A stretch of DNA of 64,000 nt from Magnetococcales bacterium (GCA_015228935.1 JADGCO010000001.1:84103-148102), one strand, 5' to 3'; positions 11,131 to 43,524 are shown, numbered from the stretch's first letter. Notes: generated by a model from the sequence alone, not told the origin. Translations and numbers: made by a program.

Positions 11131-11335
11131 GCTTTATCAACAGTAACCACGGGTGGCAACCAAAACAGGGTCATCCACTTTCTGGGCCACTCTCCCCTCT
11201 CTGGACTCTGGTCCAGATTTTCCTGACTTTTTTCAGGTTCAGGAATTTTTTTCACGTCATCTCTGGACAAAAAGAAGGATTGCCATTATCTTGCCCAGAG
11301 TGAGGCGTTGGTCTGCGGTTTGAGACGATACGCAT

Positions 11336-11422: not shown

Positions 11423-11538
11423 TTCATTCAAGCTGAAGTTTCTTTATTATTTTCTTCTCAAGAAATACGTTTTGGGCTTCATCTGCCAGTCGGCGCAGTC
11501 AAGTTGGCGAGGGTTCTTGGCCCATGGTTGACTGCGGT

Positions 11539-12110: not shown

Positions 12111-12121
12111 CGGAATTCACA

Positions 12122-12912: not shown

Positions 12913-13363
12913 CAGTACTTGCGGAAAGCAGCCTGAATTCGCACCCGTTTCAGTTTTCTTTCAAAGAGCCATTGGAAAAGATGGTTTCGGTGACCCATGC
13001 CCAAAATCCGCTGATGCGGCACTGGGCCATCCAGAGACGGCTTCTCCATGCCCGGATTGTCCAGGATTTTACATCCCCAGTCCATAAAAATCCGTAAGGA
13101 TGCCCTTCCACAAATACCCGGAATCAATCTGAATAAATCAATCGGAAGGGACAATACCTTTTGGCCCACGGTATAGTTGAAATGGAGAATGGGGGCAAAG
13201 AGAGAAAGAAAAGGCCACTTCCAGGATGGCGGAAGGTTCAGTCAAACGAGTGAACCAAGACCCAAACCACTTCGCAACATTTCGAATTATTCGAGATTTT
13301 TTCAGGATCGGGAGGGGATAAGCGATTTCTTGGGAAGCGTGAGAACGCCTTTTGGAAAAAGGG

Positions 13364-13456
13364 TGGCGGAGAGAGAGGGGTTCGAACCCTCGGTACCCTT
13401 TTGGAGTACACACGCTTTCCAGGCGTGCACCTTCGACCGCTCGGCCATCTCTCCGC
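13364..13456 (-). tRNA. tRNA-Ser (anticodon GGA), long variable arm, CCA encoded
   Basis: The reverse complement reads GCGGAGAGATGGCCGAGCGGTCGAAGG..CTGGAAA..GGGTTCGAACCCCTCTCTCTCCGCCA. The acceptor stem and T-arm pair correctly. Confidence 0.9.
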
Positions 13457-24391: not shown

Positions 24392-25468
24392 ATGACCATC
24401 CTGGATCGTCTTGGCTATTTTGTTGGTCATGCCCGCATAATCAAACCACGGCCAAAATTGGTGATCCGCATTCTGACCGGGTACGCCAGAACCTTGTTGC
24501 TGGGCCAGACTGTGTTGCGCACCATGGAACTGGCCCTCCTGACCGAATGCAACTCCAAGTGCGACATGTGCTACGCGGCCAAGGTCAAGCAACCGGAAAA
24601 AACCTATCTGACGGTCGCGGAGTATGCCGATCTCTGGCAACAAGCCAGAAAGCTCGGAACTTTTTCTGTGCTGCTCTCCGGCGGCGAACCCACGTTACGC
24701 CGCGACATTTTGGATATCATGGCCGTTTTGGATCCGAAAAACACCATTATCGGCATGACCACCAACGCCTCTCGGCTTACTCCGGACTTCCTGCAAGCCC
24801 TCCAACAGGCTGGACTGAATACCCTGCATTTGAGCCTCGATGGTTTGGACCCAGCCACCAATGACCGAATCCGGGGCATGAAAGGCCACTTTGACATGGT
24901 TATGAATGCCATCGAAGATGCCCAATCGGCAGGATTGCATGTGTTTCTCTCCACCGTCGTCCATCACGAAGGGTTGGACAAAATGCGCGCCATGGTGGAA
25001 TTTGCCCGCAAACGCAAGGTGGGCGTGGTTTTTTCCCTGGCCTGCATTTCCGGCAATTGGGACCAGCGGGATGGGGTCCTGTTGACCGGCGAGGAGTGGC
25101 AGGAAGTGCAAGCCTTCATGCGTGCCAATCCCCACATTCGTTCCGATTGGACCATCAATTTTTCTCTGCGCCAGGAGTGTCCGGGAGGACGAGAAAAGGT
25201 CAATATTTCACCCTACGGCGATGTCATGGGATGTGGCATGAACTTCATCTCTTTTGGCAATATCCGGGAGGAACCTCTGGAGAAAATCTGGCACCGCATG
25301 CAGCAGTTTCCCTATTTCAAGGAACGCTCGCCAAACTGCCTGATCGGTGCCCATCCTGAATATATCCGGAATTATATCGCACCCATCTCCGGGCAACGTG
25401 TTCCCGTCCAGATCGACCAGCATCCAAGTTACCCGATTTCGTTGGCTGATCTGGATTCCAGGACCTGA
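24392..25468 (+). CDS. radical SAM enzyme with C-terminal SPASM/twitch-like Cys region (island gene A)
   Basis: CNSKCDMCY (CxxxCxxC), LLSGGEPTL, and C-terminal ..ECPGGREKVNISPYGDVMGCG..FGNIREEPLEKIW.. Confidence 0.85.
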   Translation: MTILDRLGYFVGHARIIKPRPKLVIRILTGYARTLLLGQTVLRTMELALLTECNSKCDMCYAAKVKQPEKTYLTVAEYADLWQQARKLGTFSVLLSGGEPTLRRDILDIMAVLDPKNTIIGMTTNASRLTPDFLQALQQAGLNTLHLSLDGLDPATNDRIRGMKGHFDMVMNAIEDAQSAGLHVFLSTVVHHEGLDKMRAMVEFARKRKVGVVFSLACISGNWDQRDGVLLTGEEWQEVQAFMRANPHIRSDWTINFSLRQECPGGREKVNISPYGDVMGCGMNFISFGNIREEPLEKIWHRMQQFPYFKERSPNCLIGAHPEYIRNYIAPISGQRVPVQIDQHPSYPISLADLDSRT

Positions 25469-25472
25469 TGCC

Positions 25473-26990
25473 ATGGCACACATTGTCATGGTACAGCCCA
25501 GCACATCCCTGACGGGATCGTTCATCCGCATGATTCCGCTGGGAATCCTCTATGCCGCCAGCCGGGTCATCCGCGATTTGCAGCTTGATGTGGCTCTGCT
25601 CGATGCACGCATCAACCCGGATCGCTGGCAACAGGACCTGGAAACGTGTCTGACCCCAGAAACCCGGATCGTCGGCTTCAGCGTGATGAGCGGTTTTTCC
25701 ATCCTCGAAAGCCTGAAGATCACCCGCTGGATTAAACAGCACCATCAAGAAATTATCGTCGTCTGGGGTGGTCCGCACCCGACCTTCAGTCCGGAAGACA
25801 CCCTGGCCGAACCCACAATAGATTTCGTCATTCGTGGCTATGGTCGTGATGCTTTCCACGATCTTGTTGCCCACGTCTGGCAACGTCCCGAAGCACCGCA
25901 AAAGGAAGATATTCAAGGGCTTGGTTGGCGCAACGAGTGGGGAGAAACCAGACTGAATCCGGAAAGCGATCAATTTGAATTCATGGATTACCAGGAAATT
26001 CCCTACCACCTCATTGCCGATTTTTCGGTCTATCGGCATATCGACGGCGACGCGATGGTCTTTCCGCTCTACAGTGTCATGGGGTGTCCCTATAAATGCG
26101 CTTTTTGCAGTACCCCGGCCCAACTGGCCGGCTTCCGGAAAAAATGGGTTCCCTATGCTACGACGGATGTTGTCAACCACATTCGTATGGTAAAGGAGCG
26201 TTTCGGGGCCAGTTATATTTATTTCATCGACGAGGACTCCTTTGTCAACCTGGCCCACGTTGAAGCCATCGTCCGGGGAGTGCGGGAGGCTGGCTTGCAA
26301 CTCAAGCTGGGTTTCAGGGGGGCCCGGGTCAATGAAATCAAGCGCATGAGCGACGATTTCCTGGAAATGCTCGTGAATGCGGGTACGAGTACCATGCATG
26401 TGGGGGTCGAATGCGGCTCAGATCGCATTCTGAACCTCATGGGAAAGCATATCACGGTGGCGGATATCCTTGAGATCAATCGCAAACTGGCACGGCATCC
26501 GCAACTGCGGATCTTTTACAATTTCATCGTCGGCTACCCCACGGAAACCTTTGAGGAGACCCGCCAGACCCGTGACCTTGTGCTGCGTCTCATGGCCGAC
26601 AACCCCTCCTGTTTCATCATTCCGCTCAACAAACCCCGACCCCTGCCACGCACCCGCCTTTATGAGCTTGCCCTCAATCATGGCTACCGACCCCCACAGA
26701 CGTTGCTGGAGTGGGGCAGTTACGATGTGGAATCATCGGATTACAATCCGGAATGGCTTTCTGCCAGCCATAACCGCTGTATCCGTATGATGTTTCTGGC
26801 CATGTATTTCATCGATAATAAAATTCACCGTCTGCACCCGCGTAACACTTTGTTTTTCAAGATTCTGCGTCTGCTCGCCCGAATCTATCGCCCCATCGCC
26901 ATGCTGCGGTTTCGTTACGGCATTCACCAGTTTCTGGTGGAAGATTGGGTGTTCCGTCTGCTCAACCGGCTCTTGCCATCCCATTATTGA
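25473..26990 (+). CDS. B12-binding (class B) radical SAM enzyme (island gene B)
   Basis: Track ORF trimmed to MAHIVMVQPS.. N-terminal Rossmann-like B12-binding domain (..IVGFSVMSGFS..IIVVWGGPHPTF..), then YSVMGCPYKCAFCSTP. Confidence 0.85.
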   Translation: MAHIVMVQPSTSLTGSFIRMIPLGILYAASRVIRDLQLDVALLDARINPDRWQQDLETCLTPETRIVGFSVMSGFSILESLKITRWIKQHHQEIIVVWGGPHPTFSPEDTLAEPTIDFVIRGYGRDAFHDLVAHVWQRPEAPQKEDIQGLGWRNEWGETRLNPESDQFEFMDYQEIPYHLIADFSVYRHIDGDAMVFPLYSVMGCPYKCAFCSTPAQLAGFRKKWVPYATTDVVNHIRMVKERFGASYIYFIDEDSFVNLAHVEAIVRGVREAGLQLKLGFRGARVNEIKRMSDDFLEMLVNAGTSTMHVGVECGSDRILNLMGKHITVADILEINRKLARHPQLRIFYNFIVGYPTETFEETRQTRDLVLRLMADNPSCFIIPLNKPRPLPRTRLYELALNHGYRPPQTLLEWGSYDVESSDYNPEWLSASHNRCIRMMFLAMYFIDNKIHRLHPRNTLFFKILRLLARIYRPIAMLRFRYGIHQFLVEDWVFRLLNRLLPSHY

Positions 26991-27040
26991 ACGAATAAGA
27001 CCTGCATGTTTCCCTCGTCACCGCCCAATCTGGAATATCG

Positions 27041-28162
27041 ATGCACCTGTGGTCGTTGAAAAGTCTTTCCGACTCCCTGTTGCACCACTATGGCCGTGCC
27101 AGGTCTGCCATGCCTGCTTTGTTGACCCGGCCACTGGGATTTTTTTTCTACATTACTGGCCGGTGCAATCTCGATTGCAACTATTGCTGGCAGCGGGAAG
27201 ATGAACAGGTTGCGGATCGCAAGAGTGGCTGGGTGAATTCCGCTGCCCGGGAGCTTCCTCCCGCTGCCTGGGTCGCTGCGGTGGAGAAGCTGCCGCGCCC
27301 CTGTTTTCTTGGCCTCTCAGGTGGGGAAGCAACCCTGGCGAAGAGTTTTCCGGATATCATGGCCGCTGCAACCCGGCGGGGCATCCCCACAACGGTCAAC
27401 ACCAATGCGGCCGCCCTGCGCCCACGACAGTTGGAACAAATGCTTGCCGGATCTTTGCGCAATCTCTCCATCTCTTTGGATGGTTTTGCCGAGGTACACG
27501 ATAGCGGTCGCCGCATTCCTGGCTTGTTTCAGCGCATTGTACAGACTATAGAAACATACAACCGCCTGCGACAGGGTCGTTCCGGGGTTCATCTGACCAT
27601 CAAAAGCGTTCTGACCGATGCCAATGTGGAACAGATGCTCGCATTCCGGCAGTATTGCGCCACGACCCTGCACGCTGAGACCCTCAACATTTCCCTGGCC
27701 AAAACGGGAAATCACGCCCAGTTTACTCTCATGCACCACGAAGATGCCCGCCGGGTGATCCAGGAAAAACCTGCCAGCTTGTATCCCTACAGCAACCCGG
27801 AAAAAGTGGCCATGCTCCTTGAACGCCTGCTGCATGACAACCGTTCCAGTCCTTGTCGCGTCACCCTTTATCCCTGGATGCCACATCCAGACCGTATCCG
27901 GTACTTTTTGAAGCAGTCCGGAGAGAGTGTCTACCAACCCTGTTACCTGGCGCGGGCGATGGTGTCCGTGTTGCCGGATGGTACGGTCATTCCCTGTCTT
28001 TCCCTGGGGTTGGGAAATCTCGGGAATTATCACTACGACATCGTGGAGCTGCTGCGTGACAATCAACCTTACCGGCAGTTTCTGGAAAAGATGCGCCAGG
28101 CTGAAAGGACACTGCCCGCCGCCTGCAATGTTTGCTGTTTTTCCCGTGTCCGCAGGGAGTGA
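27041..28162 (+). CDS. radical SAM/SPASM-like enzyme (island gene C)
   Basis: YITGRCNLDCNYCW, LSGGEATL, and C-terminal Cys cluster ..QPCYLARAMVSVLPDGTVIPC..LGN....LPAACNVCCF. Confidence 0.85.
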   Translation: MHLWSLKSLSDSLLHHYGRARSAMPALLTRPLGFFFYITGRCNLDCNYCWQREDEQVADRKSGWVNSAARELPPAAWVAAVEKLPRPCFLGLSGGEATLAKSFPDIMAAATRRGIPTTVNTNAAALRPRQLEQMLAGSLRNLSISLDGFAEVHDSGRRIPGLFQRIVQTIETYNRLRQGRSGVHLTIKSVLTDANVEQMLAFRQYCATTLHAETLNISLAKTGNHAQFTLMHHEDARRVIQEKPASLYPYSNPEKVAMLLERLLHDNRSSPCRVTLYPWMPHPDRIRYFLKQSGESVYQPCYLARAMVSVLPDGTVIPCLSLGLGNLGNYHYDIVELLRDNQPYRQFLEKMRQAERTLPAACNVCCFSRVRRE

Positions 28163-28330
28163 CGTGGTATGCTCGGCTCTGGACCGGGTTTCCGGGTTTT
28201 TCGATGTATGTGGAGTGTGGGGTATGGTTGTGCGCCGAACAGAATGCCAACAAAGCACTGACAAACCTCGGTGTACACTGGATTGACATGAATTTATTGG
28301 TTCGGGTCGGGTTTTCGGTTCTTCCGCCGT

Positions 28331-29575
28331 TTGTGGAGTATGATTGTGCGCCAACAAACCATGCGCTTGATCGATGAGTGGGTCGGTCAACCCTTGTGCC
28401 TTGTTTTGCGGCTTGTTCTGACAGGACATCATGTTCTTGGCAAATTGTGGCACAGACCCGCAGCAACATTACAAAAAGAGAAGGCTGTCAAAACCATCCT
28501 GTTGCAAAAATATTTTGGCATCGGCAGCATCCTGCACGCCATACCGCTGATTCGTGCCCTGCGTCGGCGTTATCCTGATGCCCGTATCGTCTTTGTCACC
28601 TTCCAGCCCATGGTGGAAACGATCCGACTTTGCAGCATCGCCGATGAAATCATCACCCTGCCGACGCACTCTCCAACAGCCTTTGTTGCAGCACTTTTCG
28701 GTACCCTGTGGCGCTTGCGCAGACTGCCGGTGGACATTTCCATTGACCTTGAATTTTTTGCCCGGTTTACCTTGTTGTTTTCCCTGCTGAGTGGTGCCCC
28801 TGTCCGCATGGGGTTTTTTTTACGGCATATCCGACCCGCCGCCTTGCTTTCTCATCCAATTTATTATAATACTTATCATCACTTGCGGTACATTTACTTT
28901 GCCTTTGGACAGGAGCTGGGGTTGACTCCCAACGCCGAATTTTTCCGGGATGTGCTGCCCACTCCCTCCAGTCTGGTAGAATCCCGATGGCGTGACCGCC
29001 TGGGACTGGATGCCCAACTGCCCATTATCGTCGTCAATCCCAACACCTCCGAACTGGTTTATCAGCGACGTTGGCCAGCCGGTCATTTTCAGAAATTGAT
29101 CGGACGCATGGCCGAACGCTGGCCGAGGTACCAATATGTCCTGGTGGGAACGCGAAGCGAAAAAAAATATGTGGACTCCATCGTCGCTGGTCTGCACGCA
29201 ACGGCAAACAAGGTCATCAATCTGGCAGGGGTCACCACCCTGGCAGAGCTTTTCAGCTTGCTGGGGTCCGCCAGCCTGGTGATCACAAGCGACTCGGGTC
29301 CCATGCATGTTGCTGCCCTCTACCAAACCAACCTTGTTGCATTTTTCGGCCCGGAGACACCGGTCGTGTACGGACCGGTGAATACCAATGCCATTGTGTT
29401 CCACGCAAGCCACCTCTACTGCTCGCCCTGTCTGAATGTGTATGACGCCAAAAAAAGTGTCCATTACCATCCTTGCGAGAATCCCCTTTGCCTTCAGGCC
29501 ATCGATCCTGACATGGTTCTGAACATGATTGAAGAAAGATTTCTTGCATGTCCGACACAGCCTTCCCACCCCTGA
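28331..29575 (+). CDS. glycosyltransferase family 9 (heptosyltransferase-like) (island gene D)
   Basis: ..ILLQKYFGIGSILHAIPLIRALRRRYPDARIVFVT.. and ..VINLAGVTTLAELFSLLGSASLVITSDSGPMHVAAAL.. are typical GT9 N- and C-domain motifs. TTG start at 28331; alternatives at 28340 and 28361. Confidence 0.8.
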   Translation: MWSMIVRQQTMRLIDEWVGQPLCLVLRLVLTGHHVLGKLWHRPAATLQKEKAVKTILLQKYFGIGSILHAIPLIRALRRRYPDARIVFVTFQPMVETIRLCSIADEIITLPTHSPTAFVAALFGTLWRLRRLPVDISIDLEFFARFTLLFSLLSGAPVRMGFFLRHIRPAALLSHPIYYNTYHHLRYIYFAFGQELGLTPNAEFFRDVLPTPSSLVESRWRDRLGLDAQLPIIVVNPNTSELVYQRRWPAGHFQKLIGRMAERWPRYQYVLVGTRSEKKYVDSIVAGLHATANKVINLAGVTTLAELFSLLGSASLVITSDSGPMHVAALYQTNLVAFFGPETPVVYGPVNTNAIVFHASHLYCSPCLNVYDAKKSVHYHPCENPLCLQAIDPDMVLNMIEERFLACPTQPSHP

Positions 29576-30462
29576 TCAGTCCGCTGACGCGCTCCAGACT
29601 GGTGGAACGGGTCGGGGAAAAACTTGTCGCCACGGATGGAGACGAATCTTTCTTCATACGGGACGGCATAGCCGAACTTCTCGTTTCTGCGGAGCTGGTT
29701 GCGCATCAACGTCATACACAGGAAGCCTTCGATACCCTGCCGCTTGCCGGACTTCCCTATTTTCGACCTGCGTTCTTCATCGACGCCGCCCGTTCCCTTC
29801 TTCTCCACGCGGAAACCCCGCCCCGAACCTTCGCCGAACTTGGGGGCGGAGAGGGTCATCTGGCCAGGCATCTGCACGACCTCTGGCCGGGACTGCAAAG
29901 TTGTGTGTGCGATTTGAGTCGTTCCTCCCTGGCCCGTGCCCCGCACCAACTGTGCCGGATCTGGTGTGATGTCACCCGACCGGTATTTGCTCCCGATACC
30001 CTGGACGCGGCTGCCTTCTGGGTATCACTGCATCATCTGTGTGTTCAGGAGCAGACCCAGGCCATGACGGAAATAGCCCGTGCGCTCCGTCCGGGTGGCC
30101 TGCTCCTGGTATGTGAACCCAATGCCGATTTTTACCTGCGCAAGGTGGTCTACAGCACATGCCTGGCGCAGGATGTATATTTCGACCAGGAAGCTGCCGT
30201 GGATTTTTCCCGTTTGGTCGAAGCAGCCACTTCCATCGGTCTGGAACTGGTCAGGTGGCGTTTCAGAAATCCGCCCTACAATCCTGTTTTTGTTCGTAAA
30301 CTGGCGAAATGGCCAGTCTATCTTGCCGCCGTGGAGTTGTTGCATGGGCTGGATCGACTCCTGCTCCGCCCTTTGACCACACGACTGGCCGAGCCTTCCG
30401 CCAGCAACCTTTCCCGGCATCTGACTCTTTACGGCGAAGCCATTTTCAGGAAACGTCCATGA
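29548..30462 (+). CDS. class I SAM-dependent methyltransferase with Cys-less Trm112-like N-terminal segment (island gene E)
   Basis: N-terminus ..LVATDGDESFFIRDGIAELLV (Trm112-like strand motif). MT motif I AELGGGEGHLA, and post-I ..LRPGGLLLVCEP. Confidence 0.7.
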   Translation: MSDTAFPPLISPLTRSRLVERVGEKLVATDGDESFFIRDGIAELLVSAELVAHQRHTQEAFDTLPLAGLPYFRPAFFIDAARSLLLHAETPPRTFAELGGGEGHLARHLHDLWPGLQSCVCDLSRSSLARAPHQLCRIWCDVTRPVFAPDTLDAAAFWVSLHHLCVQEQTQAMTEIARALRPGGLLLVCEPNADFYLRKVVYSTCLAQDVYFDQEAAVDFSRLVEAATSIGLELVRWRFRNPPYNPVFVRKLAKWPVYLAAVELLHGLDRLLLRPLTTRLAEPSASNLSRHLTLYGEAIFRKRP

Positions 30463-31412
30463 TGTGTCCAACGTCGGCGGAATCAACCATCGCCAACTCT
30501 GCGTCTTCTGTCTGGGGTTGTCCTGTTTGTGGTGACGCACGGCATCAGCGAATTGGTTCGGTGCAACACCACCCTTTACATGTCTGTGTCGCATGCCGAT
30601 TGCAGTTTTTGCATCCCCAACCGACGCCGACAGAGCTTGCCGCCATCTATCGGGACTACTATCAGGCGTGGGGAAAACTCGACGAGCCTGCCGTACAGGC
30701 TCAGGTGTCTGCCATGAAGCAACAGACCTTTCATGGCTACCTGGATATATTGGAACACTACGGGACCAAAGGGGGATCGCTCCTGGATATCGGTTGCGCG
30801 ACAGGCGATTTCCTGTTGGCCGCTCGACAAAGGGGATTTGCTGTTCATGGCGTGGAAATCTCGCCGGAGGGAATCCGCCGCAGCCGGATGTTGTTTGGTT
30901 CCGCACACATCCATGCCGGTTCCCTGGATGACACGGCCTTTGCCGACCATCTTTTCGACATCATCATCCTGAGCGATGTTCTGGAACACATTTCCGATCT
31001 GAAGGGATTGCGTCGGCACATTCTGCGCCTGATGCAGCCCCGGGGCATGCTGCTTGTCGTCACGCCCGACGCCGGCAGCCTCAGTTGCCGTCTCATGGGC
31101 ACCCGCTGGCCACATTACAAACCTGAACACCTGTTTTATTTTCAACGCGGGACGATCCGTGCGTGGTTGCAGGACTCCTTCCAGCTCCTGGTCTGTCAGC
31201 GCGCCGTCAAGACCCTGACGCCCATATATTGCGGGCAGGTTCTGAAACAATATGGTCAATTCCCCCTGGCCAGAATGACGGGGCGGTTTTTTTCGTCGCT
31301 GCCCGACTTTTTGGGCAACAGGCATGTTGCGGTCAGCCTTGGCGAAATGCTCGTCGTGGCCAAACGGGCGTCAGCCCCCCTCGGACTCGAACATTCCCAG
31401 CCACAGACATAA
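30459..31412 (+). CDS. class I SAM-dependent methyltransferase with N-terminal zinc-ribbon (island gene F)
   Basis: Track ORF trimmed to MMCPTS.. (ATGA overlap with gene E). CPVCG..17..CVACRLQF, motif I LLDIGCATGDFL, and ..ILSDVLEHI.. Confidence 0.75.
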   Translation: MMCPTSAESTIANSASSVWGCPVCGDARHQRIGSVQHHPLHVCVACRLQFLHPQPTPTELAAIYRDYYQAWGKLDEPAVQAQVSAMKQQTFHGYLDILEHYGTKGGSLLDIGCATGDFLLAARQRGFAVHGVEISPEGIRRSRMLFGSAHIHAGSLDDTAFADHLFDIIILSDVLEHISDLKGLRRHILRLMQPRGMLLVVTPDAGSLSCRLMGTRWPHYKPEHLFYFQRGTIRAWLQDSFQLLVCQRAVKTLTPIYCGQVLKQYGQFPLARMTGRFFSSLPDFLGNRHVAVSLGEMLVVAKRASAPLGLEHSQPQT

Positions 31413-31477
31413 ACGTCCCATCGGTTCAGATCCCCTCTGACCGAACATTCCCAGCCACAGACATAAACGTCCCATCG
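31388..31477. repeat. 36-bp perfect direct repeat x2 (31388-31423 and 31442-31477), spaced 54 bp
   Basis: CGAACATTCCCAGCCACAGACATAAACGTCCCATCG occurs twice. Copy 1 contains the last codons and the stop of gene F. Confidence 0.9.
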
Positions 31478-31506
31478 ATCCGGCACTCCGGCACTCTGTC
31501 ACTTCG

Positions 31507-33870: not shown

Positions 33871-33987
33871 GCAGATATGACCTCGCAGACTACCTGGAAA
33901 ATTGGTATTCTCCGCTGAATCAAATCGGTCGGTCAAGGGTGGTTGCCACCCATTGCTTGCGAAGTGTTCGGGAGAAACGGATTCACC

Positions 33988-35073
33988 ATGGGACTCTTTC
34001 GCCAAAGGGCGCGGCTTTACACCCGGATCGTCATGGCCGACAGGCTCGGTCTGGTACAGCCTGTGGTGACGGCCTTCTTCATTACCACCCGTTGTAATGC
34101 CCACTGCAACTATTGCTACACCGACAAGGGTATTGCCAAACGCGATGAGATGACCACCCGCCAAATCTGCGATACCGTGGACGGGTTGGTCGGAATGGGC
34201 ACACGCATCATCAACCTGATGGGCGGCGAACCCTTGTTGCGGGATGATTTTCCTGAAATTCTGCGACACATTCGCGCCAGGAACATTGTTTGTGATGTCA
34301 ATACAAACTGTTTCCTGATCGAAAAGCACCTGGATCTGTTGCGCACACACGCCACGCAACTGTTCACCAGCCTCGATGGTGACGAACAAGCCCACGATTT
34401 GAATCGCGGTGCAGGCACGTTCAACAAGACGGTGCATGGCATTCGTCTGGCCCGGCAAGCCGGTATCCCGGTACGCATCAATTGCACGGTGACACGACAC
34501 AATGCGGACAAAATCGATTTTTTAATTGATTTTTCAGAACGTTACAACCTGTTTCTCACCTTCACCCCTCTGGTGCGCGCCCATACCGGAACTCTGGCAA
34601 GCACGGCAGCCCTGACCCCCGACGACCAGGAAGCCAAAAATATTTTTCAACGCATCAAGGCTGCCAAGGCTCGCTCGACGCGCATCATGAATTCCGATGC
34701 CGCCCTCGATTATTACATCCATTATCCGGTTCCTTTCGGCACCATTGTGGGACGTGATGAAACCGGCCTCCATCGCAACTACTACACACGGACCTGTCCC
34801 TACGGACGGTTGCAGTTTTTTGTGACCAGCAATGGCAACGTGTACAGTTGCCACAACATGTGGAACGAACCAACCTATCAGCCGGGCAACGTGTTGCGTC
34901 AGGGAGTGCGGGATGCCATCATGCAGGCTCATGCAGGCCTGACCTGTAAATATTGCTGGCTGGCCAATCTGGTGGAGTGGAACGAGTTCACGACCCTCCC
35001 CTGGCTGTTCAAGGGGATCCGTATGACACTCAGGCAGATGTTCGAACGTTCGCAGCCGGGATCCGGCATATGA
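33988..35073 (+). CDS. radical SAM/SPASM-like enzyme (island gene H)
   Basis: Trimmed to MGLFRQRARL.. ITTRCNAHCNYCY, LMGGEPLL, and C-terminal ..TCPYGRLQFFVTSNGNVYSCHN.....CKYCW. Confidence 0.85.
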   Translation: MGLFRQRARLYTRIVMADRLGLVQPVVTAFFITTRCNAHCNYCYTDKGIAKRDEMTTRQICDTVDGLVGMGTRIINLMGGEPLLRDDFPEILRHIRARNIVCDVNTNCFLIEKHLDLLRTHATQLFTSLDGDEQAHDLNRGAGTFNKTVHGIRLARQAGIPVRINCTVTRHNADKIDFLIDFSERYNLFLTFTPLVRAHTGTLASTAALTPDDQEAKNIFQRIKAAKARSTRIMNSDAALDYYIHYPVPFGTIVGRDETGLHRNYYTRTCPYGRLQFFVTSNGNVYSCHNMWNEPTYQPGNVLRQGVRDAIMQAHAGLTCKYCWLANLVEWNEFTTLPWLFKGIRMTLRQMFERSQPGSGI

Positions 35074-35221
35074 CCTCTGTTTCCGCTCCGAATGACCTTA
35101 CGTCAATCGCGCACCGGAAACACCGGAACGGTGTGAGTCCTCTGCCACGCAGAGCAAACGCAGCGGACCACAACGTGGATTTCCGATCCGGCATGGGCAT
35201 GATGGAACATTCCAGGAAAAG

Positions 35222-36343
35222 ATGGTAATCCAGATGAACATGGCGCGCACCATACGGGACCTGATCGTTCTGATACGCATCATCATCCAGGTGTTGCGAG
35301 TCAAGATTACTCGGCGGGCGCGGCCAGTGTCGGTAAATCTCCAGGTGACCAAACACTGCAATCTGGCGTGTTCCTACTGTTTTGCCGACCTGGAATCCCT
35401 GGCCACAGTCAAGGATCCCGACACATCGGAAATGATGGAAACCATTGACGAACTGTATCGCCATGGTTGCCGACACATCATCCTGATGGGAGGAGAACCC
35501 CTGATCCGAAAGGATATCGGTACCATCATTCGCCATATCAAAAACAGGTGGATGCGTTGCGAGATCGTCACCAACGGCTATTATGTCGCGCAACATCTGG
35601 AGGATTTGCAGGCATGTGATTCGGTCTGCGTCAGCCTGGATGGCCTTCGGGAAAGCAACGATGTCGTGCGCGGCAAGGGATGCCACGACACTGTGGTCAA
35701 AGCCATGGATTTTCTCCACGCAAAGGGAATCAAAACCCGGATTCATGCCATCATCACCCGGGAAAATCTGCACAGCGGCAGCATGCGCTACATCGCCGAA
35801 TTGGCAGCCAGATACGGATTTGCTTTCAATTTTTCCATGGCCATGCTGCGGCCTGAACTGCGGGATGATTCCATCCATTTCACCGAAGAGGAGATCCAGG
35901 AGATCATTGCCGAGTATCGGCAGTTGCGCATGGACGGATTCCCGGTCTTCACCTCGGAGAGATGTCTGAAATATGTCGCCAAATGGCCCAAGAAAGGCTC
36001 CTATACAATTTTTGAGGCGGACTCATTGACCCCGGAAGAAAAGCGTTGGGTCATGCCCTGCAACTATGGCCGTTACAATGCCTTCCTCGATGTGGATGGC
36101 AGTGTCTACAAATGTTGCCTGACCTGGAAAAACGGCCTCAAATGGCGCGAACATGGCATGCAGGCCTGCATCGATCATGTGGGCCGGAATCTGCTCCATT
36201 GCGTTTCCTGCCGCAGCATTGGGGACATCGATCGGGCCATGTTGCTGGAATTTGCCAGTCTGGGCAACTTGAGGATGGTGTGGAACTATTTGTTCAAGCG
36301 TTCCGGACGGCAAAAGGCAAAAGCAGTGCGCACATCATCATGA
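35222..36343 (+). CDS. radical SAM/SPASM-like enzyme, paralogue of gene H (island gene I)
   Basis: VTKHCNLACSYCF, LMGGEPLI, and C-terminal ..PCNYGRYNAFLDVDGSVYKCC....CVSCRS. Alternative starts at 35234 and 35240. Confidence 0.85.
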   Translation: MVIQMNMARTIRDLIVLIRIIIQVLRVKITRRARPVSVNLQVTKHCNLACSYCFADLESLATVKDPDTSEMMETIDELYRHGCRHIILMGGEPLIRKDIGTIIRHIKNRWMRCEIVTNGYYVAQHLEDLQACDSVCVSLDGLRESNDVVRGKGCHDTVVKAMDFLHAKGIKTRIHAIITRENLHSGSMRYIAELAARYGFAFNFSMAMLRPELRDDSIHFTEEEIQEIIAEYRQLRMDGFPVFTSERCLKYVAKWPKKGSYTIFEADSLTPEEKRWVMPCNYGRYNAFLDVDGSVYKCCLTWKNGLKWREHGMQACIDHVGRNLLHCVSCRSIGDIDRAMLLEFASLGNLRMVWNYLFKRSGRQKAKAVRTSS

Positions 36344-36362
36344 AAACCAGGCAGCGAAACCC

Positions 36363-38333
36363 ATGAATGGACGGAATGGCATGCAGGATCAGGTGGTGGT
36401 ACTCACCGGGGCATCCCGGGGCGTGGGCCGCTGTCTGGCGAAACGCCTGCTGGCCCGGGGTGCCGTGGTCATTGGAGTGGCCCGGGACGGTGCTGCCCTT
36501 GACAGCCTGGTCTGTGCGCATGCAGCTTCCCGGCGGGATGGAACGACACATGGGAGTGGCCGTTTTATCCCAGTGGCCTGTGACGTGGCGGATGCTGAGG
36601 CGGTGCGCCGCCAGGTCGGCGCGGCAGTGGCAGCACTGGGTCGGGTGGACCTGCTCATCAACAATGCCGGCGTGGGCTTGACAGCCAGCGCCCTCGCCAC
36701 CCGCCGCGAGTGGAGCGAACGCGCCATGGCCGTCAATTTTTACGGCGCGGTGAATCTGACCGAAACCATCGCGCCCATGATGATCCAGGCACGTGCGGGT
36801 GTCATCGTCAACGTTGCTTCGGTCGTGGCCCGGCTGGGCATGCCGACGGTTGCCCATTATGCGGCGGCCAAGGCCGCACTCACGGCCTGGTCACAGGCTC
36901 TGGAATCTGAACTGGCCCCGGCAGGCATTCGCGTGTTGACGGTGCATCCGGGTAATACGGATACCGGTTTTCACACCAGCCAGTTGCAACCGGGAGGCTC
37001 GCCAGCATGGGTGACCCGTGGCAACAGGCTCGATCCGGAAATGGTGGCCGACACGATTCTCGGATTGACTGCCGGCCCATCTGCGGAGAAGGTGATCGGA
37101 CGCCCGGCACAGATGTTGCTTTTGTTGCGCTTTTTGGCACCACGGTGGCTGCGCAACCTGTTCATCTCCTTGTTCCGCCTGGATGTCTGGTATGACTCGG
37201 ACGCACCATTGGATCCGGGAACCAGCTCCCCATTCTCGCCAGAGGTCACGTTCCCCGGTGCGCAACCGCCGCCGGTCATGCCGGCGCTGACCGGGGTTAC
37301 CCTGGCACATGCAGATCGTTTCTGCGGTTACCATCGGCAAAAAGGTCCCCTGACCGGGCACCAGGTACTGACCCCTGGACTCGATCCTCTGCTGTTTTAC
37401 ACGCTTTATCCTTACCTTCTGGCCACCGTATACACCCGCACATCCCCTTCCCGGCAGCGTTTCCGGCATCCCTGGCTGCCAAATGCCGGCTGGATACCCA
37501 TGGTCCACAGGCCGGTTGGTGCCGTGGCTGCGGTGAAAAATGTCATCAAAACCCTGTTGGTGCCCGTGCGCCCTCTTGGTCGTAGCTGGCACGGTGTCGA
37601 ACTGCGCGTGGCTGGACATCCATATGCTTTCGACCTGGGCGAAGGCGGGACGGTGTGTCCGGCAGCCTTTCGTGCTTTTTTTCCCGTGCAACTGCGCAGC
37701 CAACTGGAAGCCAAAGACGGTGGGACCTGGAGCGGGTGTTGTCCCGATCACCTGAAAAATCTGACATTTGCAGCCGGGAATAATACCCTTGCGTCCGTAC
37801 CCCTGCCCGGTGCCGATCCTGTATGCCATTGGGGAGCGCAGGCCGTACTCAAAGCAGGAAACCCCTGCCACAGGCAACCAGTACCGGAGAAGGATGGCAG
37901 AGGTTCAACCATGACCCTGGAGGAATTGGCCACGCAACTCGGTGTGCCCTGTCCGACCCTCCTGCAAACCGCTCTGGGCTATTATCTGACGCTGAGCATG
38001 GGTGGAGAGTTGGCCTTCTACAGCACAACCTTTGATGCTGCCATGTTTCAATGTCCCAGCGTGCGTTCCCGGGTGGCTGCAGAAATCGTTCGCCACCGGG
38101 AAACGGGCATGGTGACACTCGTCGTTTTGGCCATCAATGGCACCGCCTGCGCTCGGGGATTTGTTGCCGGTGACCGGTGGCAGTTGCCTTTGGATCTGGA
38201 ACGGACCCGGGGGTGTCTGCACGCTTTCAATGCCCTCTATCTTGCCGCCGGAGTGGCGGATTTATTGCCGGAACCGATCACTGTGGCCTGTCCCCGGGAG
38301 GGGTGCCAGGCAACCTGGCAGGTGGCAGCATGA
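36363..38333 (+). CDS. short-chain dehydrogenase/reductase fused to a ~390-aa Cys-containing domain of unknown function (island gene J)
   Basis: SDR: VVVLTGASRGVGR (TGxxxGxG), NNAG and YAAAKAAL (YxxxK). The C-terminal half has no family I can name with confidence. It may hold two TIGR04076-like modules (..CPAAFRAFFP..GCCPDHLKNLTF.. and ..CLHAFNALYL..VACPREGCQATWQV). Confidence 0.8.
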   Translation: MNGRNGMQDQVVVLTGASRGVGRCLAKRLLARGAVVIGVARDGAALDSLVCAHAASRRDGTTHGSGRFIPVACDVADAEAVRRQVGAAVAALGRVDLLINNAGVGLTASALATRREWSERAMAVNFYGAVNLTETIAPMMIQARAGVIVNVASVVARLGMPTVAHYAAAKAALTAWSQALESELAPAGIRVLTVHPGNTDTGFHTSQLQPGGSPAWVTRGNRLDPEMVADTILGLTAGPSAEKVIGRPAQMLLLLRFLAPRWLRNLFISLFRLDVWYDSDAPLDPGTSSPFSPEVTFPGAQPPPVMPALTGVTLAHADRFCGYHRQKGPLTGHQVLTPGLDPLLFYTLYPYLLATVYTRTSPSRQRFRHPWLPNAGWIPMVHRPVGAVAAVKNVIKTLLVPVRPLGRSWHGVELRVAGHPYAFDLGEGGTVCPAAFRAFFPVQLRSQLEAKDGGTWSGCCPDHLKNLTFAAGNNTLASVPLPGADPVCHWGAQAVLKAGNPCHRQPVPEKDGRGSTMTLEELATQLGVPCPTLLQTALGYYLTLSMGGELAFYSTTFDAAMFQCPSVRSRVAAEIVRHRETGMVTLVVLAINGTACARGFVAGDRWQLPLDLERTRGCLHAFNALYLAAGVADLLPEPITVACPREGCQATWQVAA

Positions 38334-39916
38334 TTTCCCGATCCCGGCAGGGTTATGCCCTGTTCTCCGTTGCCGAGACACATCGGATTGTGGAATTTGC
38401 CCATGCCTGCATGCAGGTCGGCTGGACTATCGTGGCCAGTGAACCGCCGTTGTCAACCTTGCGCGCAGCCGGTATCCCTGCGGTGGATGTGGCGGATTTT
38501 GTCGGTGTGGATGCTTCCCGCTACCCGTTCCCACCCACCTTGCACCCGAAAATCGAGTGGGCATTGACCGACGCCTCGGCTGACATACGGCTGGAACTGG
38601 TCTACGACATTCCCTATGGCCCGGCCCTGGGCAACGATGTGGGCGGCCACACATTGTTGGGACTGGCTGCCAAAGGAAATCGGCTGCCGGTAGCCACGGT
38701 GACGGATATGGAGCAGGTGGCACGGGCGCTGGGGACAACCGGTACCGTGCCCGCCGACCTCCGCCAAGCCCTGATTGATGCCGCCAACCTGCGTGTGATG
38801 CGCCATTATGCCTCCCTGGTGCCGAACGGGCCTGATCATCAGGTCATTGTGGCACATACACCCCGAACCCTGCTGAATGGCGAAAATCCTTACCAGGTAC
38901 CGGCGGTGTTGCTGGACGACGGCAGCGGCGACCCGCTCGGTCTGGTCGCCTGTCGGCAGGTGCTGGGCAACCCTCCCTGCCTGACAAATCTGGCGGACGC
39001 GGATTCTCTCATCTCCACTCTGGTACGGTTGAGCGCCGGCTTTCGGTGCCTGCAGGATGGAGTCCCCTTTCTGGCCATTGCTGCCAAGCATGGTAATCCC
39101 TGTGGGATCGGTTGGCACCGGAAGGATCCCCTGACAGCCATCCGACGCGCCTTGTGGGCCAACCCGGGTGCTATCTGGGGAGGTGAAGTGGCTGTCAATT
39201 TTCCCCTGGACACCGCCTGTGCCGAAGCCCTGTTTGCCGATCCTCGGCGAGCGAAATCATTTGGCTCGGAACGTTGGATGCTGGATGTTGTCCTGGCCCC
39301 GGATGCCGACGCAGGAGCCTGCAACCAGTTGGGGCAACGCCGCCTGACCAAACTGTTTCTGAATGACCGTCTGGCAGACCCGGACAAGGTGCCACATCCC
39401 TCCTGGCAGGGGCGACTGGTGCGGGGGGGATTATTGCGGCAACCCCCAGCGGACTATGTTCTTGACCTCGCCACGGCGGAAGTGGATGGCTCCTGGCCCG
39501 ATACTCCGACCCAGGAGGCAATGGTGATCGCCTGGGCAGCCGCCTTCTCCTCCAATCAGGGCGGCAATGAGGTGGCCCTGGCGTGTCCCGGTGCCCTGCT
39601 GGCCGTTGGCGGAGGCCCCGCAACAGTTGAGGCGGCAGAATTGGCCGTCCTGCGGGCGCGGCGAGCCGTTGCCAATCTGAACATCGCGGAAAACACCGCC
39701 GACATCCACGCCCTGGATGCCACGGGCATGGTCTTCGCAGCAGATGCCTTCTTTCCCTTTACCGATGGCCCGGAGATTTTGACCCGGGCCGGTTGCCGGC
39801 ATGGGGTGGTTCCGAGTGGTGGCATGCGCTTCGATGTCGTTCGCACCTTTCTGCGTGACCAGAGTGTCGGCATGGTGTATCTGGACGAGCGTTACCGGGG
39901 ATTCTGCCGGCACTGA
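38330..39916 (+). CDS. PurH-like protein (MGS-like/IMPCH + AICARFT architecture) with diverged substrate motifs (island gene K)
   Basis: Trimmed to MISRSRQGY.. (ATGA overlap with gene J). Collinear with PurH: ALFSVAETHRIVEFA.., ..TLHPKIE.., ..AAKHGNPCGIG.., ..ADAFFPFTDGPE.., ..ERYRGFCRH. Confidence 0.75.
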   Translation: MISRSRQGYALFSVAETHRIVEFAHACMQVGWTIVASEPPLSTLRAAGIPAVDVADFVGVDASRYPFPPTLHPKIEWALTDASADIRLELVYDIPYGPALGNDVGGHTLLGLAAKGNRLPVATVTDMEQVARALGTTGTVPADLRQALIDAANLRVMRHYASLVPNGPDHQVIVAHTPRTLLNGENPYQVPAVLLDDGSGDPLGLVACRQVLGNPPCLTNLADADSLISTLVRLSAGFRCLQDGVPFLAIAAKHGNPCGIGWHRKDPLTAIRRALWANPGAIWGGEVAVNFPLDTACAEALFADPRRAKSFGSERWMLDVVLAPDADAGACNQLGQRRLTKLFLNDRLADPDKVPHPSWQGRLVRGGLLRQPPADYVLDLATAEVDGSWPDTPTQEAMVIAWAAAFSSNQGGNEVALACPGALLAVGGGPATVEAAELAVLRARRAVANLNIAENTADIHALDATGMVFAADAFFPFTDGPEILTRAGCRHGVVPSGGMRFDVVRTFLRDQSVGMVYLDERYRGFCRH

Positions 39917-39934
39917 CCGGAATGAGGATTTCGG

Positions 39935-40960
39935 ATGGCAGCATTCAATACTTTGCATAATCGCTTCAAAATCATGCGTAACTATTACACCGCCACAGAT
40001 CGCCCCGCCTACCCCCAGGAGGTGGTGATCGAGCTGACCAACCATTGCAACCTGGCTTGCATCATGTGTCCGCACCAGACCATGCAACGGCCCAAAGGAC
40101 GAATGTCGGCAGGGTTGTTCCAGAAAATAATCGACGAGATTGCCGGTCACACCGACCTTGTCTATTTGTATGGAACCGGCGAAACGCTGCTGCACAAACA
40201 GTTTCCGGAATTGACCCACTATGCCCATGCCCGGGGAATAGCCACCTGCATATCCACCAACGGCATGATCATGAACGAAACCATGGCCCTTAACCTGTTG
40301 ACCTGCGGTCTTGATTTTCTGACGGTAGCCTTGGACGGGGGGATCAGGGAGACCTACGAACGGATTCGGGTCAAGGGCGACTTTGCCTTGCTGGTGCAGA
40401 ACATTCACACCCTGCTGCGGGTCAAAAAAGAAACCGGATCCACCACGCGCATCACCCTGCAAATGATCTGCATGCCGGAAAATCTGCACGAGATTGCCTT
40501 GTTCAAAGCGTTGTTCACGAAGGAGGAACATGCCCTGCTGCATCAGTTCCGTTTCAAGCCGTTACATAAAACTTATTTACTCGAACGACAGGATATCCGG
40601 CATACCCGGCCTTGTTTCTGGCTGTGGAACATGATGTCCATCTACTGGGATGGAACCGTACCCCTTTGTTGCACCGATGCCGATGGTGCCGTCCGGCTGG
40701 GCAGAGTAACGGAACAGACCATACACGACATATGGCATGCCGAACCTTTGCGGGCCATACGCCGTGCCCACCAACTGATCAACTACGATACCATGCCACT
40801 TTGCCGAAGCTGCAACATCCCCGAGCAGGGATATTTTAACAACCTGACTATTCCCGGCTCGCTGCTGGTGGGATCAGCCTGGTTGCGCAAACTGGTACCT
40901 CTGTACGAAAGGTTGATCATGCTGCCCTTTCAGCGGATGAAGGGTGTCCCTTCCGATTGA
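39935..40960 (+). CDS. radical SAM/SPASM enzyme (island gene L)
   Basis: LTNHCNLACIMCP, and C-terminal ..RPCFWLWNMMSIYWDGTVPLCCTD..LGRV..IHDIW....PLCRSCN. Confidence 0.85.
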   Translation: MAAFNTLHNRFKIMRNYYTATDRPAYPQEVVIELTNHCNLACIMCPHQTMQRPKGRMSAGLFQKIIDEIAGHTDLVYLYGTGETLLHKQFPELTHYAHARGIATCISTNGMIMNETMALNLLTCGLDFLTVALDGGIRETYERIRVKGDFALLVQNIHTLLRVKKETGSTTRITLQMICMPENLHEIALFKALFTKEEHALLHQFRFKPLHKTYLLERQDIRHTRPCFWLWNMMSIYWDGTVPLCCTDADGAVRLGRVTEQTIHDIWHAEPLRAIRRAHQLINYDTMPLCRSCNIPEQGYFNNLTIPGSLLVGSAWLRKLVPLYERLIMLPFQRMKGVPSD

Positions 40961-41104: not shown

Positions 41105-41190
41105 GACGCCTTGGTGAAAATCATGGAGGATTGGACGTACCCTTTCGGGTCGTCCGCAACAGACGGATCTGGACCCCTGGAGGGAAAACG

Positions 41191-41409
41191 TTGAGTAAAG
41201 AAGATGTGATTGAAATGGAAGGAACAGTCCTGGAAAACCTTCCAAATGCCATGTTCCGGGTGGAACTGGAAAATGAACACAAGCTGTTGTGTCATATCTC
41301 GGGGCGGATGCGCAAGCACTACATCCGAATCCTGCCCGGAGACAAGGTTACCGTGCAACTGACCCCTTATGATCTGACCAAGGGACGCATTTCCTACCGC
41401 CATAAGTAG
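41191..41409 (+). CDS. infA: translation initiation factor IF-1
   Basis: (M)[71 protein letters not shown], 72 aa. TTG start with a GGAGGG RBS. The track ORF starts further upstream. Confidence 0.9.
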
Positions 41410-43364: not shown

Positions 43365-43375
43365 CGAGGCTGGAG

Positions 43376-43524
43376 GTTGGAAACTTTGGATGCCGAAGGC
43401 TGCGGAGGCTGGAGGCCGGTTTTCAGGTTGACGGGTCGGTATCGCCAGGGAAGTTGGAAACTTTGAATGCCGAAGGCTGCGGAGGCTGGAGGCCGGTTTT
43501 CAGGTTGACGGGTCAGTATCGCCA
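43376..43524. repeat. 77-bp-period tandem repeat, two 72-nt copies with 2 mismatches, in the parE-tolC intergenic region
   Basis: GTTGGAAACTTTG(G/A)ATGCCGAAGGCTGCGGAGGCTGGAGGCCGGTTTTCAGGTTGACGGGTC(G/A)GTATCGCCA at 43376-43447 and 43453-43524. Confidence 0.9.

Follow-up and report, generated by a model that had tools for sequence, protein, structure and literature searches.

A radical-SAM island in a Magnetococcales genome as one copy of an eleven-gene cassette with a candidate role in envelope sugar tailoring

The island and its genes

A metagenome-assembled genome (MAG) of an uncultured magnetotactic member of the Magnetococcales carries, at positions 24392-40960 of the 64,000-nucleotide stretch analysed here (GCA_015228935.1, JADGCO010000001.1:84103-148102; the window), a 16.6-kb island of twelve genes, A to L. 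Six encode radical S-adenosylmethionine (SAM) enzymes and one, K, encodes a paralogue of the purine-biosynthesis enzyme PurH. An initial annotation, made from the sequence alone, listed these twelve genes; open reading frame (ORF) listing and Pfam scans bear out both the genes and their coordinates. The close packing it described was also re-found: a 4-nt gap between A and B, ATGA overlaps at E/F and J/K, and a 28-nt overlap between D and E. The start of D was refined to the ATG at 28340, which has GGAG ahead of it. The genes are as follows.

A, 24392-25468, plus strand: radical-SAM/SPASM enzyme, CNSKCDMC at residue 53 (PF04055 92.6 bits, PF13186 35.5 bits)
B, 25473-26990, plus strand: class B cobalamin-binding radical-SAM enzyme, CPYKCAFC at residue 205 (PF02310 65 bits, PF04055 68.8 bits)
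C, 27041-28162, plus strand: radical-SAM/SPASM enzyme, CNLDCNYC at residue 42 (PF04055 60.5 bits, PF13186 23.5 bits)
D, 28340-29575, plus strand: glycosyltransferase (GT) of family GT9 (heptosyltransferase family, GT-B; PF01075 95.8 bits)
E, 29548-30462, plus strand: class-I SAM methyltransferase (Methyltransf_11/25/12/23)
F, 30459-31412, plus strand: class-I SAM methyltransferase with an N-terminal CPVCG motif (Methyltransf_23 87 bits)
G, 31507-33870, minus strand: DUF6044/YfhO-like polytopic membrane protein of 787 aa, GT-C-like (PF19510 75.8 bits, PF09586 32.6 bits)
H, 33988-35073, plus strand: radical-SAM/SPASM enzyme, CNAHCNYC at residue 36 (PF04055 80.7 bits, PF13186 22.4 bits)
I, 35222-36343, plus strand: radical-SAM enzyme with a twitch-like four-Cys C-terminus, CNLACSYC at residue 46 (PF04055 81.4 bits)
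J, 36363-38333, plus strand: classical short-chain dehydrogenase/reductase (SDR; residues ~1-270) fused to a Cys-rich region, Jc (~320-656) (adh_short 157.7 bits)
K, 38330-39916, plus strand: PurH paralogue, MGS-like plus AICARFT (PF01808 79 bits, its sole Pfam family)
L, 39935-40960, plus strand: radical-SAM/SPASM enzyme, CNLACIMC at residue 38 (PF13186 57.6 bits, PF04055 57.6 bits)

The island lies between core genes, as the initial annotation had it: Pfam identifies a TamA-like Omp85 gene and TamB (1407 aa) upstream, and infA (within 41131-41409) followed by a ParE/GyrB-like gene downstream. The G+C content (GC) is 0.52-0.62 in the island and 0.56-0.62 in the flanks.

Eleven genes recur in other lineages

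Further copies of the cassette were found on the contigs of close clusters of the Jc domain, and the ORFs of the comparison loci (L numbers) were assigned by best match to the window proteins. The other cassettes come from SAR324, an Oligoflexia MAG, and three more metagenomic contigs (L006, L008, and L092). Orthologues of every gene but G are present at two of these loci: a SAR324 locus (L004/L047), in the order GT9, E-F fusion, I, J, K, L, H, C, ..., A, B; and L008, in the order D, E, F, A, B, I, J, K, L, H, C. Most of the set is found in L006 (GCA_054474455.1), with methyltransferases, H, I, the SDR, a stand-alone Jc, K, and L. An Oligoflexia MAG (L091; JADFZY010000005) carries A, B, H, D, C, an E-F fusion, I, J, and L, and has no K within 10 kb. 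Finally, L092 has K, I, J, L, a C orthologue, and only a distant B12 radical-SAM gene, adjoining a Wzm/Wzt exporter that has a Wzt_C domain.

The most conserved member is I, with 59-63% identity to the window protein in all five other cassettes, and it always lies directly upstream of J. K is 44-46% and Jc 32-41% identical across the other cassettes, and L, which always follows J/K, is 38-54% identical. A always adjoins B; A is 58% identical in L004, 57% in L091, and 41% in L008, and B is 55%, 32%, and 31% identical at these same loci. Identities are 37-47% for C (L004, L008, L091, L092), 33-42% for D (L004, L008, L091), and 38-42% for H (L004, L006, L008, L091); F has orthologues in L004, L006, L008, and L091. 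Gene order I-J-(K)-L is invariant; A-B stay together, likewise D-E-F, and the rest is shuffled. Both E/F and SDR/Jc occur fused and split: E and F form one protein of 573-595 aa in L004 and L091, and L006 and L090 encode the SDR and Jc in two neighbouring genes.

Every island gene except G is therefore co-inherited across phyla. Since they recur in unrelated lineages, their juxtaposition is not fortuitous, and the proposal that the island is a functional unit, for which an anchored gene-neighbourhood check had been suggested, is upheld: 11 of the 12 genes are co-conserved in at least five other contigs of other lineages. The opposite idea, that twelve unrelated genes came to lie together by chance, could draw on gene G, which is on the opposite strand and not conserved, and on promoter and terminator scans in which operon signals did not rise above shuffled background. 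Yet the co-conservation comes with local synteny in unrelated contigs; stop and start codons overlap; and cassette members are fused to one another. The conservation analysis refutes this idea, which has next to no probability left.

The cassette is patchily distributed, in Magnetococcales, SAR324, and Oligoflexia, which speaks for an old horizontal transfer between distantly related lineages. The initial annotation had noted that island GC resembles that of core DNA, which holds, and had concluded that the island does not look recently acquired; old horizontal transfer stays compatible with flank-like GC.

Two of the loci have features of their own. A short Y1_Tnp (IS200-type transposase) fragment lies within the L006 cassette (L006:956-1153), consistent with mobility or rearrangement. 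L091 is a natural "K-minus" cassette with a shortened Jc (J is 522 aa), and so is useful for comparative chemistry.

The membrane protein

Gene G does not belong to the conserved set in which it had been counted. No homologue was found in any other cassette locus searched; the conserved unit is therefore eleven genes. The protein itself is DUF6044-like (PF19510 75.8 bits against a cutoff of 27, matching from residue 41 of 787), and PF09586 matches its C-terminal 60 residues only (32.6 bits; cutoff 28.5). It has seven transmembrane-like segments at a strict threshold, and seven or more overall, making it polytopic. Each of the other cassettes has its own unrelated polytopic protein, of 576-851 aa and without a Pfam family. 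With a large polytopic protein in each cassette, and none alike, a membrane partner seems to be required but non-orthologous.

Pfam agrees with the annotated identities of the GT9 enzyme, the two methyltransferases, the YfhO/DUF6044-like protein, the SDR fusion, and the PurH-like protein. The argument built on pairing a cytoplasmic GT-B with a periplasmic GT-C enzyme is weaker than it was put, because G is not conserved.

Six radical-SAM enzymes

All six proteins belong to the radical SAM superfamily (PF04055, 57.6-92.6 bits against a cutoff of 29.5), and the six annotated CxxxCxxC motifs were located at residues 53 (A), 205 (B), 42 (C), 36 (H), 46 (I), and 38 (L). An N-terminal B12-binding domain had been seen in B; PF02310 places it at residues 20-131 (65 bits, cutoff 32.1), ahead of PF04055 at 204-369. 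The C-terminal Cys clusters of SPASM or twitch type described for A, C, H, I, and L are recognized as SPASM by Pfam in four of the five (A, C, H, and L; PF13186, 22.4-57.6 bits, cutoff 21.5). I has no PF13186 match; instead it has four C-terminal cysteines, C280, C298, C327, and C330, that are invariant even when distant homologues from L090 and L001 are included. This suggests that I carries a single auxiliary-cluster, twitch-like domain. Its nearest solved structures are viperin, SkfB, BlsE, and MoaA, with E values of about 1e-9 to 1e-7.

No NCBIfam radical-SAM model was passed by any of the six, whose best scores are 54-112 bits against curated cutoffs of 170-750. Named equivalogs in this comparison include BzaD, HpnJ, BchE, AhbD, MoaA, PqqE, MftC, StsB, tungsten-cofactor oxidoreductase maturase, and viperin. 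The best matches of A are AhbD (112 bits) and MoaA (109), far under the cutoffs; those of B are BzaD (100), HpnJ (97), and BchE (95), with cutoffs of at least 450; that of L is the tungsten-cofactor oxidoreductase maturase (110, cutoff 380). MoaA is among the top matches, all sub-cutoff, of A, H, and I.

Some of these resemblances would fit tailoring of a membrane lipid (hopanoid-, ether-, or ladderane-type), followed by glycosylation by the GT9 enzyme. Besides HpnJ, B matches a ladderane-type lipid B12 radical-SAM family (80 bits) and HpnR (59); A matches the tetraether synthase Tes (73) and H matches HpnH (70); the island adjoins the outer-membrane lipid-transport genes tamA and tamB; and every cassette has its large polytopic membrane protein. 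However, the scores lie 4-10 times under the curated cutoffs and are not above those for unrelated radical-SAM families. Genes for squalene, hopene, isoprenoids, or fatty acids occur in none of the cassettes, the adjacency to tamB is not kept in the others, and a PurH paralogue would have no obvious role. Lipid tailoring is accordingly improbable. Tetrapyrrole (Ahb/NirJ) and hopanoid readings were also tried and set aside: the scores are generic and sub-threshold, and the supporting pathway genes are absent.

A third possibility is maturation of a peptide or protein, as in the ribosomally synthesized and post-translationally modified peptides (RiPPs): the SPASM enzymes would cross-link or epimerize the chain, and methylation and glycosylation would follow. 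For H and I the top NCBIfam models are indeed peptide maturases, including those for sactipeptide (StsB) and mycofactocin (MftC), at 84-98 bits, and GT9-family enzymes are able to glycosylate proteins (the autotransporter heptosyltransferases). Against this, those scores too are far under the cutoffs; the radical-SAM motifs of five enzymes stand at residues 36-53, leaving no room for a recognition element; no peptidase, other protease, or leader-peptide exporter occurs in any cassette; and the surroundings are glycan genes. When the 20-110-aa ORFs of four cassettes were compared all against all in search of a RiPP precursor, the sole matches were shadow ORFs within conserved genes, and none of the small intergenic ORFs proved to be conserved between these cassettes. 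The initial annotation had argued against a RiPP on similar grounds, and that judgement can be kept: such a product is very unlikely.

A PurH paralogue with altered active-site residues

K is 100% identical to a protein of a Magnetococcales MAG; exact-protein look-ups of K and of its identical database copy (P0001) led to no indexed contig. At about 45% identity, K has homologues in more than 850 clusters. Among GTDB species representatives, a scan found 79 loci, in Nitrospinaceae, Omnitrophota, Elusimicrobiota, Patescibacteria, Altiarchaeota, Syntrophaceae, Planctomycetia, Anaerolineaceae, Rhodocyclaceae, Geobacter, SAR324, and another Magnetococcales MAG. A neighbour-joining tree splits the K clade, by a long branch, from a canonical-like PurH group of about 30% identity that is found in Patescibacteria only. 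K itself falls below the cutoffs of the NCBIfam purH models (PRK00881, 129 bits against 402; TIGR00355, 92 against 528).

The K-clade profile nevertheless aligns end-to-end with solved PurH structures (4ehi, E=4e-51; 3zzm; 1zcz), and K shares the two-domain architecture of PurH/ATIC. The transformylase dyad K253/H254 (in AKHGNxCG) and residues F474-F475-P476...D479 (in DAFFPFxD) align with those of PurH and are invariant in 27 clade members; equivalents of PurH Tyr104, Asp125, and Lys137 are also retained. Among the residues that serve PurH are Lys66 of the inosine monophosphate (IMP) cyclohydrolase and Arg208/Tyr209, which contact 5-aminoimidazole-4-carboxamide ribonucleotide (AICAR) (PMC3261824). 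These have been lost in K: the STGGT phosphate loop has become ASxxx; VKTLHP (Lys66) has become PPTLHP; and (R/K)YGENPHQ (Arg208/Tyr209) has become LNGENPYQ. With the Lys-His pair and FFPFxD kept and the AICAR and IMP residues lost, K is predicted to be a folate-dependent one-carbon (formyl) transferase with a new, non-AICAR acceptor, and its cyclohydrolase site is probably altered or inactive.

The genomic setting of the clade also differs from that of PurH. Its members frequently adjoin Jc-like, radical-SAM, and glycan genes rather than purine genes: radical-SAM genes are present at 31 of 46 K-clade loci, against 0 of 36 canonical-like loci. One Nitrospinaceae MAG (JAPYPM01) has three K copies (contigs L013, L022, and L024), the most seen per genome, each in a module with a Jc-like gene, a radical-SAM gene, and an SDR gene. 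This argues against a housekeeping PurH, and suggests several distinct products per organism. Housekeeping PurH was rejected as an identity for K on account of the active-site substitutions, the separate clade, the multiple copies per genome, and the linkage to Jc and radical-SAM genes. At one Omnitrophota locus (L003/L032; JAZDOJ010000052) a K homologue has neither Jc nor radical-SAM neighbours, and adjoins HMGL-like and KDPG-aldolase-like genes.

Jc, a rare Cys-rich partner

In J, residues 10-206 form a classical SDR (adh_short, 157.7 bits against a cutoff of 26.6), and about 380 aa without a Pfam family follow. The initial annotation had this fusion right, and called the second part an unknown domain; it proves to be a definable rare family, found beside the PurH paralogue well outside the cassette. 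Jc has only 14 close clusters among 5.8e9, and a profile recovers 210 representatives among 1.84e9 proteins. It consists of two or three repeats resembling TIGR04076, an uncharacterized family of ~91-aa proteins with Cys/Pro motifs, and has about ten conserved cysteines in CP-type motifs. Against the NCBIfam cutoff of 33 bits the window Jc scores 25.8, and two stand-alone homologues with 2-3 repeats score 54.3 (P0130) and 48.2 (P0132). Unlike TIGR04076 proteins, Jc is ~350 aa long, multi-repeat, and either fused to an SDR or placed beside the PurH paralogue. An AlphaFold (AF2) model has a predicted local distance difference test score (pLDDT) of 74.5 and a predicted template-modelling score (pTM) of 0.79; a Foldseek search of the model against the PDB gave a best hit at E=0.15, with no fold match at E<0.1.

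By the Jc profile, a Jc-like ORF is present at 29 of the 43 K-clade loci that have enough upstream sequence, and at none of the 36 canonical-like loci. It is a single gene or two ~180-aa genes, mostly immediately upstream of K. Moreover, L091, the sole cassette without K, has a shortened, degenerate Jc. Because Jc-like genes stand beside K despite their rarity, and the K-less cassette has a degenerate one, K and Jc look like a functional pair. A minimal module recurs: an I-like radical-SAM gene, an SDR gene, Jc, and K.

Glycan genes surround the related loci

A Pfam census of the 126 other ORFs within 5 kb of K homologues counted 11 methyltransferases, 7 NAD-epimerase/dehydratases, 6 GT2 enzymes, 5 Polysacc_synt_2 proteins, 5 further radical-SAM genes, 4 Fe-ADH, and 4 PMT_2. 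The module of L001 lies amid GT2 and GT87 genes, a 1208-aa PMT_2 protein, UDP-glucose dehydrogenase, and epimerases. In Geobacter (L089) the genes after the module encode an epimerase, a GT1/GT4-type transferase, and Polysacc_synt_2; PMT_2 genes are found in L031 and L036; and GT9-like genes occur in the looser modules L023, L031, L036, and L039 (an Uhrbacteria locus). In SAR324 a transaldolase-type (FSA) aldolase, an HpcH aldolase, and HAD and NUDIX genes lie just upstream of GT9.

At L090, from Omnitrophota, the gene order is GT2, radical SAM, SDR, Jc-like, K, Polysacc_synt_2, methyltransferase, SDR, GFO_IDH. Directly after GFO_IDH come a GHMP kinase (best match HddA), a nucleotidyltransferase (matches include HddC), an SIS protein (best match GmhA), a HAD phosphatase (GmhB near-best), and a transaldolase; a DegT aminotransferase is also carried. 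The kinase has a 78%-identical copy in L001 and, together with a nucleotidyltransferase, a 42% homologue in L041.

Phosphatase-superfamily genes also appear near K. An alkaline-phosphatase-superfamily gene (Phosphodiest/Sulfatase/Metalloenzyme) is directly upstream of the PurH paralogue at L036:8500-9927; at L039:3903-6260 such a protein is fused to a methyltransferase and stands ~1.5 kb upstream of the paralogue, from which a B12 radical-SAM gene separates it; and the last gene of L006 is PhoD. These genes may point to a phospho-substituent or to a phosphodiester step.

These neighbours bear on the main alternative to a sugar product: a small molecule derived from a nucleotide, for example a nucleoside metabolite or a new cofactor of purine- or pterin-like type. 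In its synthesis I and K would modify a purine nucleotide at the base or the ribose, and the methyltransferases and GT9 would be late tailoring enzymes. K matches PurH from end to end and keeps the catalytic residues. Viperin and MoaA, to which I is closest among solved structures, have nucleoside triphosphates as substrates, and MoaA is again a top match of A and H. Next to the SAR324 cassette lie a NUDIX gene and a HAD phosphatase gene, and the window cassette has no sugar-nucleotide synthesis genes. But the residues of K for AICAR binding (the Tyr209 equivalent) and IMP cyclization (the Lys66 equivalent and the phosphate loop) are replaced; the radical-SAM matches are all generic and far under cutoffs; and across the K clade the great majority of neighbours are glycan genes, with GT2, GT-C, and a Wzm/Wzt exporter among them. 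Rfam at gathering thresholds returned three tRNAs only, and neither ZTP nor cobalamin nor any other riboswitch was found. A nucleotide-derived product is thus unlikely, with more in its favour than lipid tailoring.

Comparison with known systems

Three known systems come near a sugar-tailoring cassette. The first is the Arn route of lipid A modification (UDP-Ara4N/Ara4FN), which L001 and L090 recall through a formyltransferase of 10-formyl-tetrahydrofolate type, SDR chemistry, GT2, a DegT aminotransferase, UDP-glucose dehydrogenase, and a PMT_2/ArnT-like GT-C protein. Here, however, the putative formyltransferase is PurH-like, not FMT- or ArnA-like. Of the Arn set (aminotransferase, FMT-type formyltransferase, GT2, deformylase, and ArnT), the window cassette has only a GT-C-like protein of a different family; without aminotransferase, GT2, or deformylase, it has instead GT9 and six radical-SAM enzymes.

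The second system is the tailoring of nucleoside diphosphate (NDP)-heptose of the Campylobacter jejuni type (GmhA/HddA/GmhB/HddC, with SDR epimerases/reductases and O-methyltransferases). The cassette shares with it a heptosyltransferase-family GT, an SDR, and two methyltransferases, and the L090 module is contiguous with the HddA-, HddC-, GmhA-, and GmhB-like genes and the transaldolase. The known tailoring of GDP-D-glycero-alpha-D-manno-heptose for capsules and S-layer glycans relies, for its sugar conversions, only on SDR or cupin epimerases, dehydratases, and reductases. We know of no radical-SAM, PurH-like, or TIGR04076-like protein in heptose tailoring, and found no paper on one.

D is a GT9 member (PF01075, Glyco_transf_9, 95.8 bits against a cutoff of 22), and it falls below the cutoffs of the lipopolysaccharide (LPS) heptosyltransferase equivalogs (WaaC/WaaF/WaaQ): TIGR02195 (heptosyltransferase II) 97.1 against 134.6, TIGR02201 72 against 170, and TIGR02193 50 against 185. 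The heptose-like genes of L090 lend contextual support to D as a putative ADP-heptose-using transferase. Since GT9 is the heptosyltransferase family, and heptose-like genes stand in L090 and other loci, a nucleotide-activated heptose is the leading candidate substrate.

The third comparison is with radical-SAM enzymes of sugars and cyclitols. I shares the core and the four-Cys twitch-like C-terminus of BtrN, DesII, BlsE, and AprD4, which have one auxiliary cluster, and BlsE is among its nearest solved relatives. Similarly, B shares the cobalamin plus radical-SAM architecture of class B C-methyltransferases such as GenK. No cutoff of these families is reached (BlsE model 38 bits against 400; AprD4 50 against 500). 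To our knowledge, no sugar pathway combines six such radical-SAM enzymes.

The view of the initial annotation that no described pathway is present remains intact: profile searches of all twelve proteins found no NCBIfam model that reaches its cutoff, and literature searches turned up no account of the cassette or the PurH paralogue and no function for TIGR04076. The cassette is best read as a sugar-tailoring or glycan cluster with unprecedented enzyme content, nested in a larger family of glycan-associated modules built on the PurH paralogue and its rare Cys-rich partner.

A model for the cassette

These comparisons suggest a model, to which we assign a probability of about one half: the island would be one copy of a horizontally mobile eleven-gene cassette, accompanied by a lineage-specific membrane protein, that modifies a sugar in nucleotide-activated form and attaches it to an envelope glycoconjugate. 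The sugar is most probably a heptose, or else some other higher sugar or a deoxy sugar. I, which resembles BtrN, MoaA, and viperin in its single auxiliary-cluster (twitch-like) domain, would remove a hydrogen from the ring of the sugar or ribose and so create a keto or ene intermediate. The SDR half of J would reduce or re-oxidize this intermediate, for a net epimerization or deoxygenation. K and the Jc half of J would then move a formyl (one-carbon) unit from 10-formyl-tetrahydrofolate to a nucleophile on the intermediate. Further changes (C-methylation, O-methylation, epimerization, or dehydration) would be the work of the four SPASM enzymes (A, C, H, L), of the cobalamin-dependent B, and of the two methyltransferases, E and F. 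Finally, D would transfer the finished sugar on the cytoplasmic side, and the polytopic membrane protein, here G, would perform a membrane or periplasmic step (export or attachment).

A more specific proposal, tentative and with the odds against it, is that K and Jc are an enzyme pair not recognized before. The pair may perform a purine-type folate one-carbon transfer, perhaps then ring closure, on a radical-SAM-activated sugar, to yield an unprecedented hyper-modified surface monosaccharide in many uncultured lineages: Magnetococcales, SAR324, Nitrospinaceae, Omnitrophota, Patescibacteria, and Elusimicrobiota.

An envelope glycoconjugate had already been favoured by the initial annotation, with a cyclitol- or sugar-derived metabolite as an option. 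The envelope glycoconjugate remains the best reading, given modules set among GT2, GT-C (PMT_2), NDP-sugar epimerase/dehydratase, Wzm/Wzt, and NDP-heptose-like genes; the cyclitol option gained no support.

Several points weigh against the model. No sugar-nucleotide synthesis gene, aminotransferase, GT2, flippase, or exporter is present in the cassette or in the rest of the window. The initial annotation had likewise noted that the usual companions (nucleotidyltransferase, Wzx/Wzy, and ABC transporter) are absent from the window. Searches for NDP-heptose genes elsewhere in the 64 kb found none. The link to heptose comes from GT9 membership, with D under the equivalog cutoffs, and from a few distant loci; at L090 the transaldolase passes its cutoff, but the heptose-like genes are mostly under theirs. 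No amine acceptor for the formyl group is evident. About one third of K-clade loci lack both Jc and radical-SAM genes within 10 kb; together with the K-less L091, this makes K neither universal to the cassette nor restricted to it. Finally, the substrates proposed for all six radical-SAM enzymes derive from weak family resemblance.

Other features of the window

A few features outside the island deserve record. The interval 9955-13454 has a low GC of 0.41, against ~0.55 elsewhere; it holds an Acyl_transf_3 membrane acyltransferase gene (9955-11130) and is bracketed by two tRNA genes, tRNA-Leu(CAG) at 11336-11422 and tRNA-Ser(GGA) at 13364-13454 on the minus strand. It may be a small acquired islet.

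Three repeats were also found. A perfect 12-nt tandem repeat, GGAATAGAAAAA, in 6.4 copies at 8332-8417, lies close to the 3' end of an ORF without a Pfam family (7573-8580), upstream of a CobB/CobQ-like amidotransferase gene. Within tamB, a tandem repeat with 21-nt and 63-nt periods (20941-21115) encodes a low-complexity insert of Lys-Glu-Thr-Thr-Gly-Ser-Gly type in TamB. A direct duplication of 77 nt (43372-43524; 2.0 copies, 96% match) begins just past the ParE/GyrB-like gene, and its 3' end reaches the start of an outer-membrane efflux (OEP) gene at 43545.

Implications

If the sugar-tailoring model is correct, the cassette would define a glycan-tailoring route with six radical-SAM enzymes and a recruited purine-biosynthesis enzyme, and would imply sugar chemistry without precedent, for example C-methylation, radical epimerization or dehydration, and one-carbon addition. 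The I-J-K-L block is small enough for in vitro reconstitution. The model would also provide the first functional context for two orphan families: the TIGR04076-like Jc proteins and the clade of PurH paralogues, which at 90% identity comprises upwards of 850 clusters. Moreover, it would point to a surface structure common to hard-to-culture lineages, bearing on their envelope biology, on phage/host recognition, and on biomarker chemistry.

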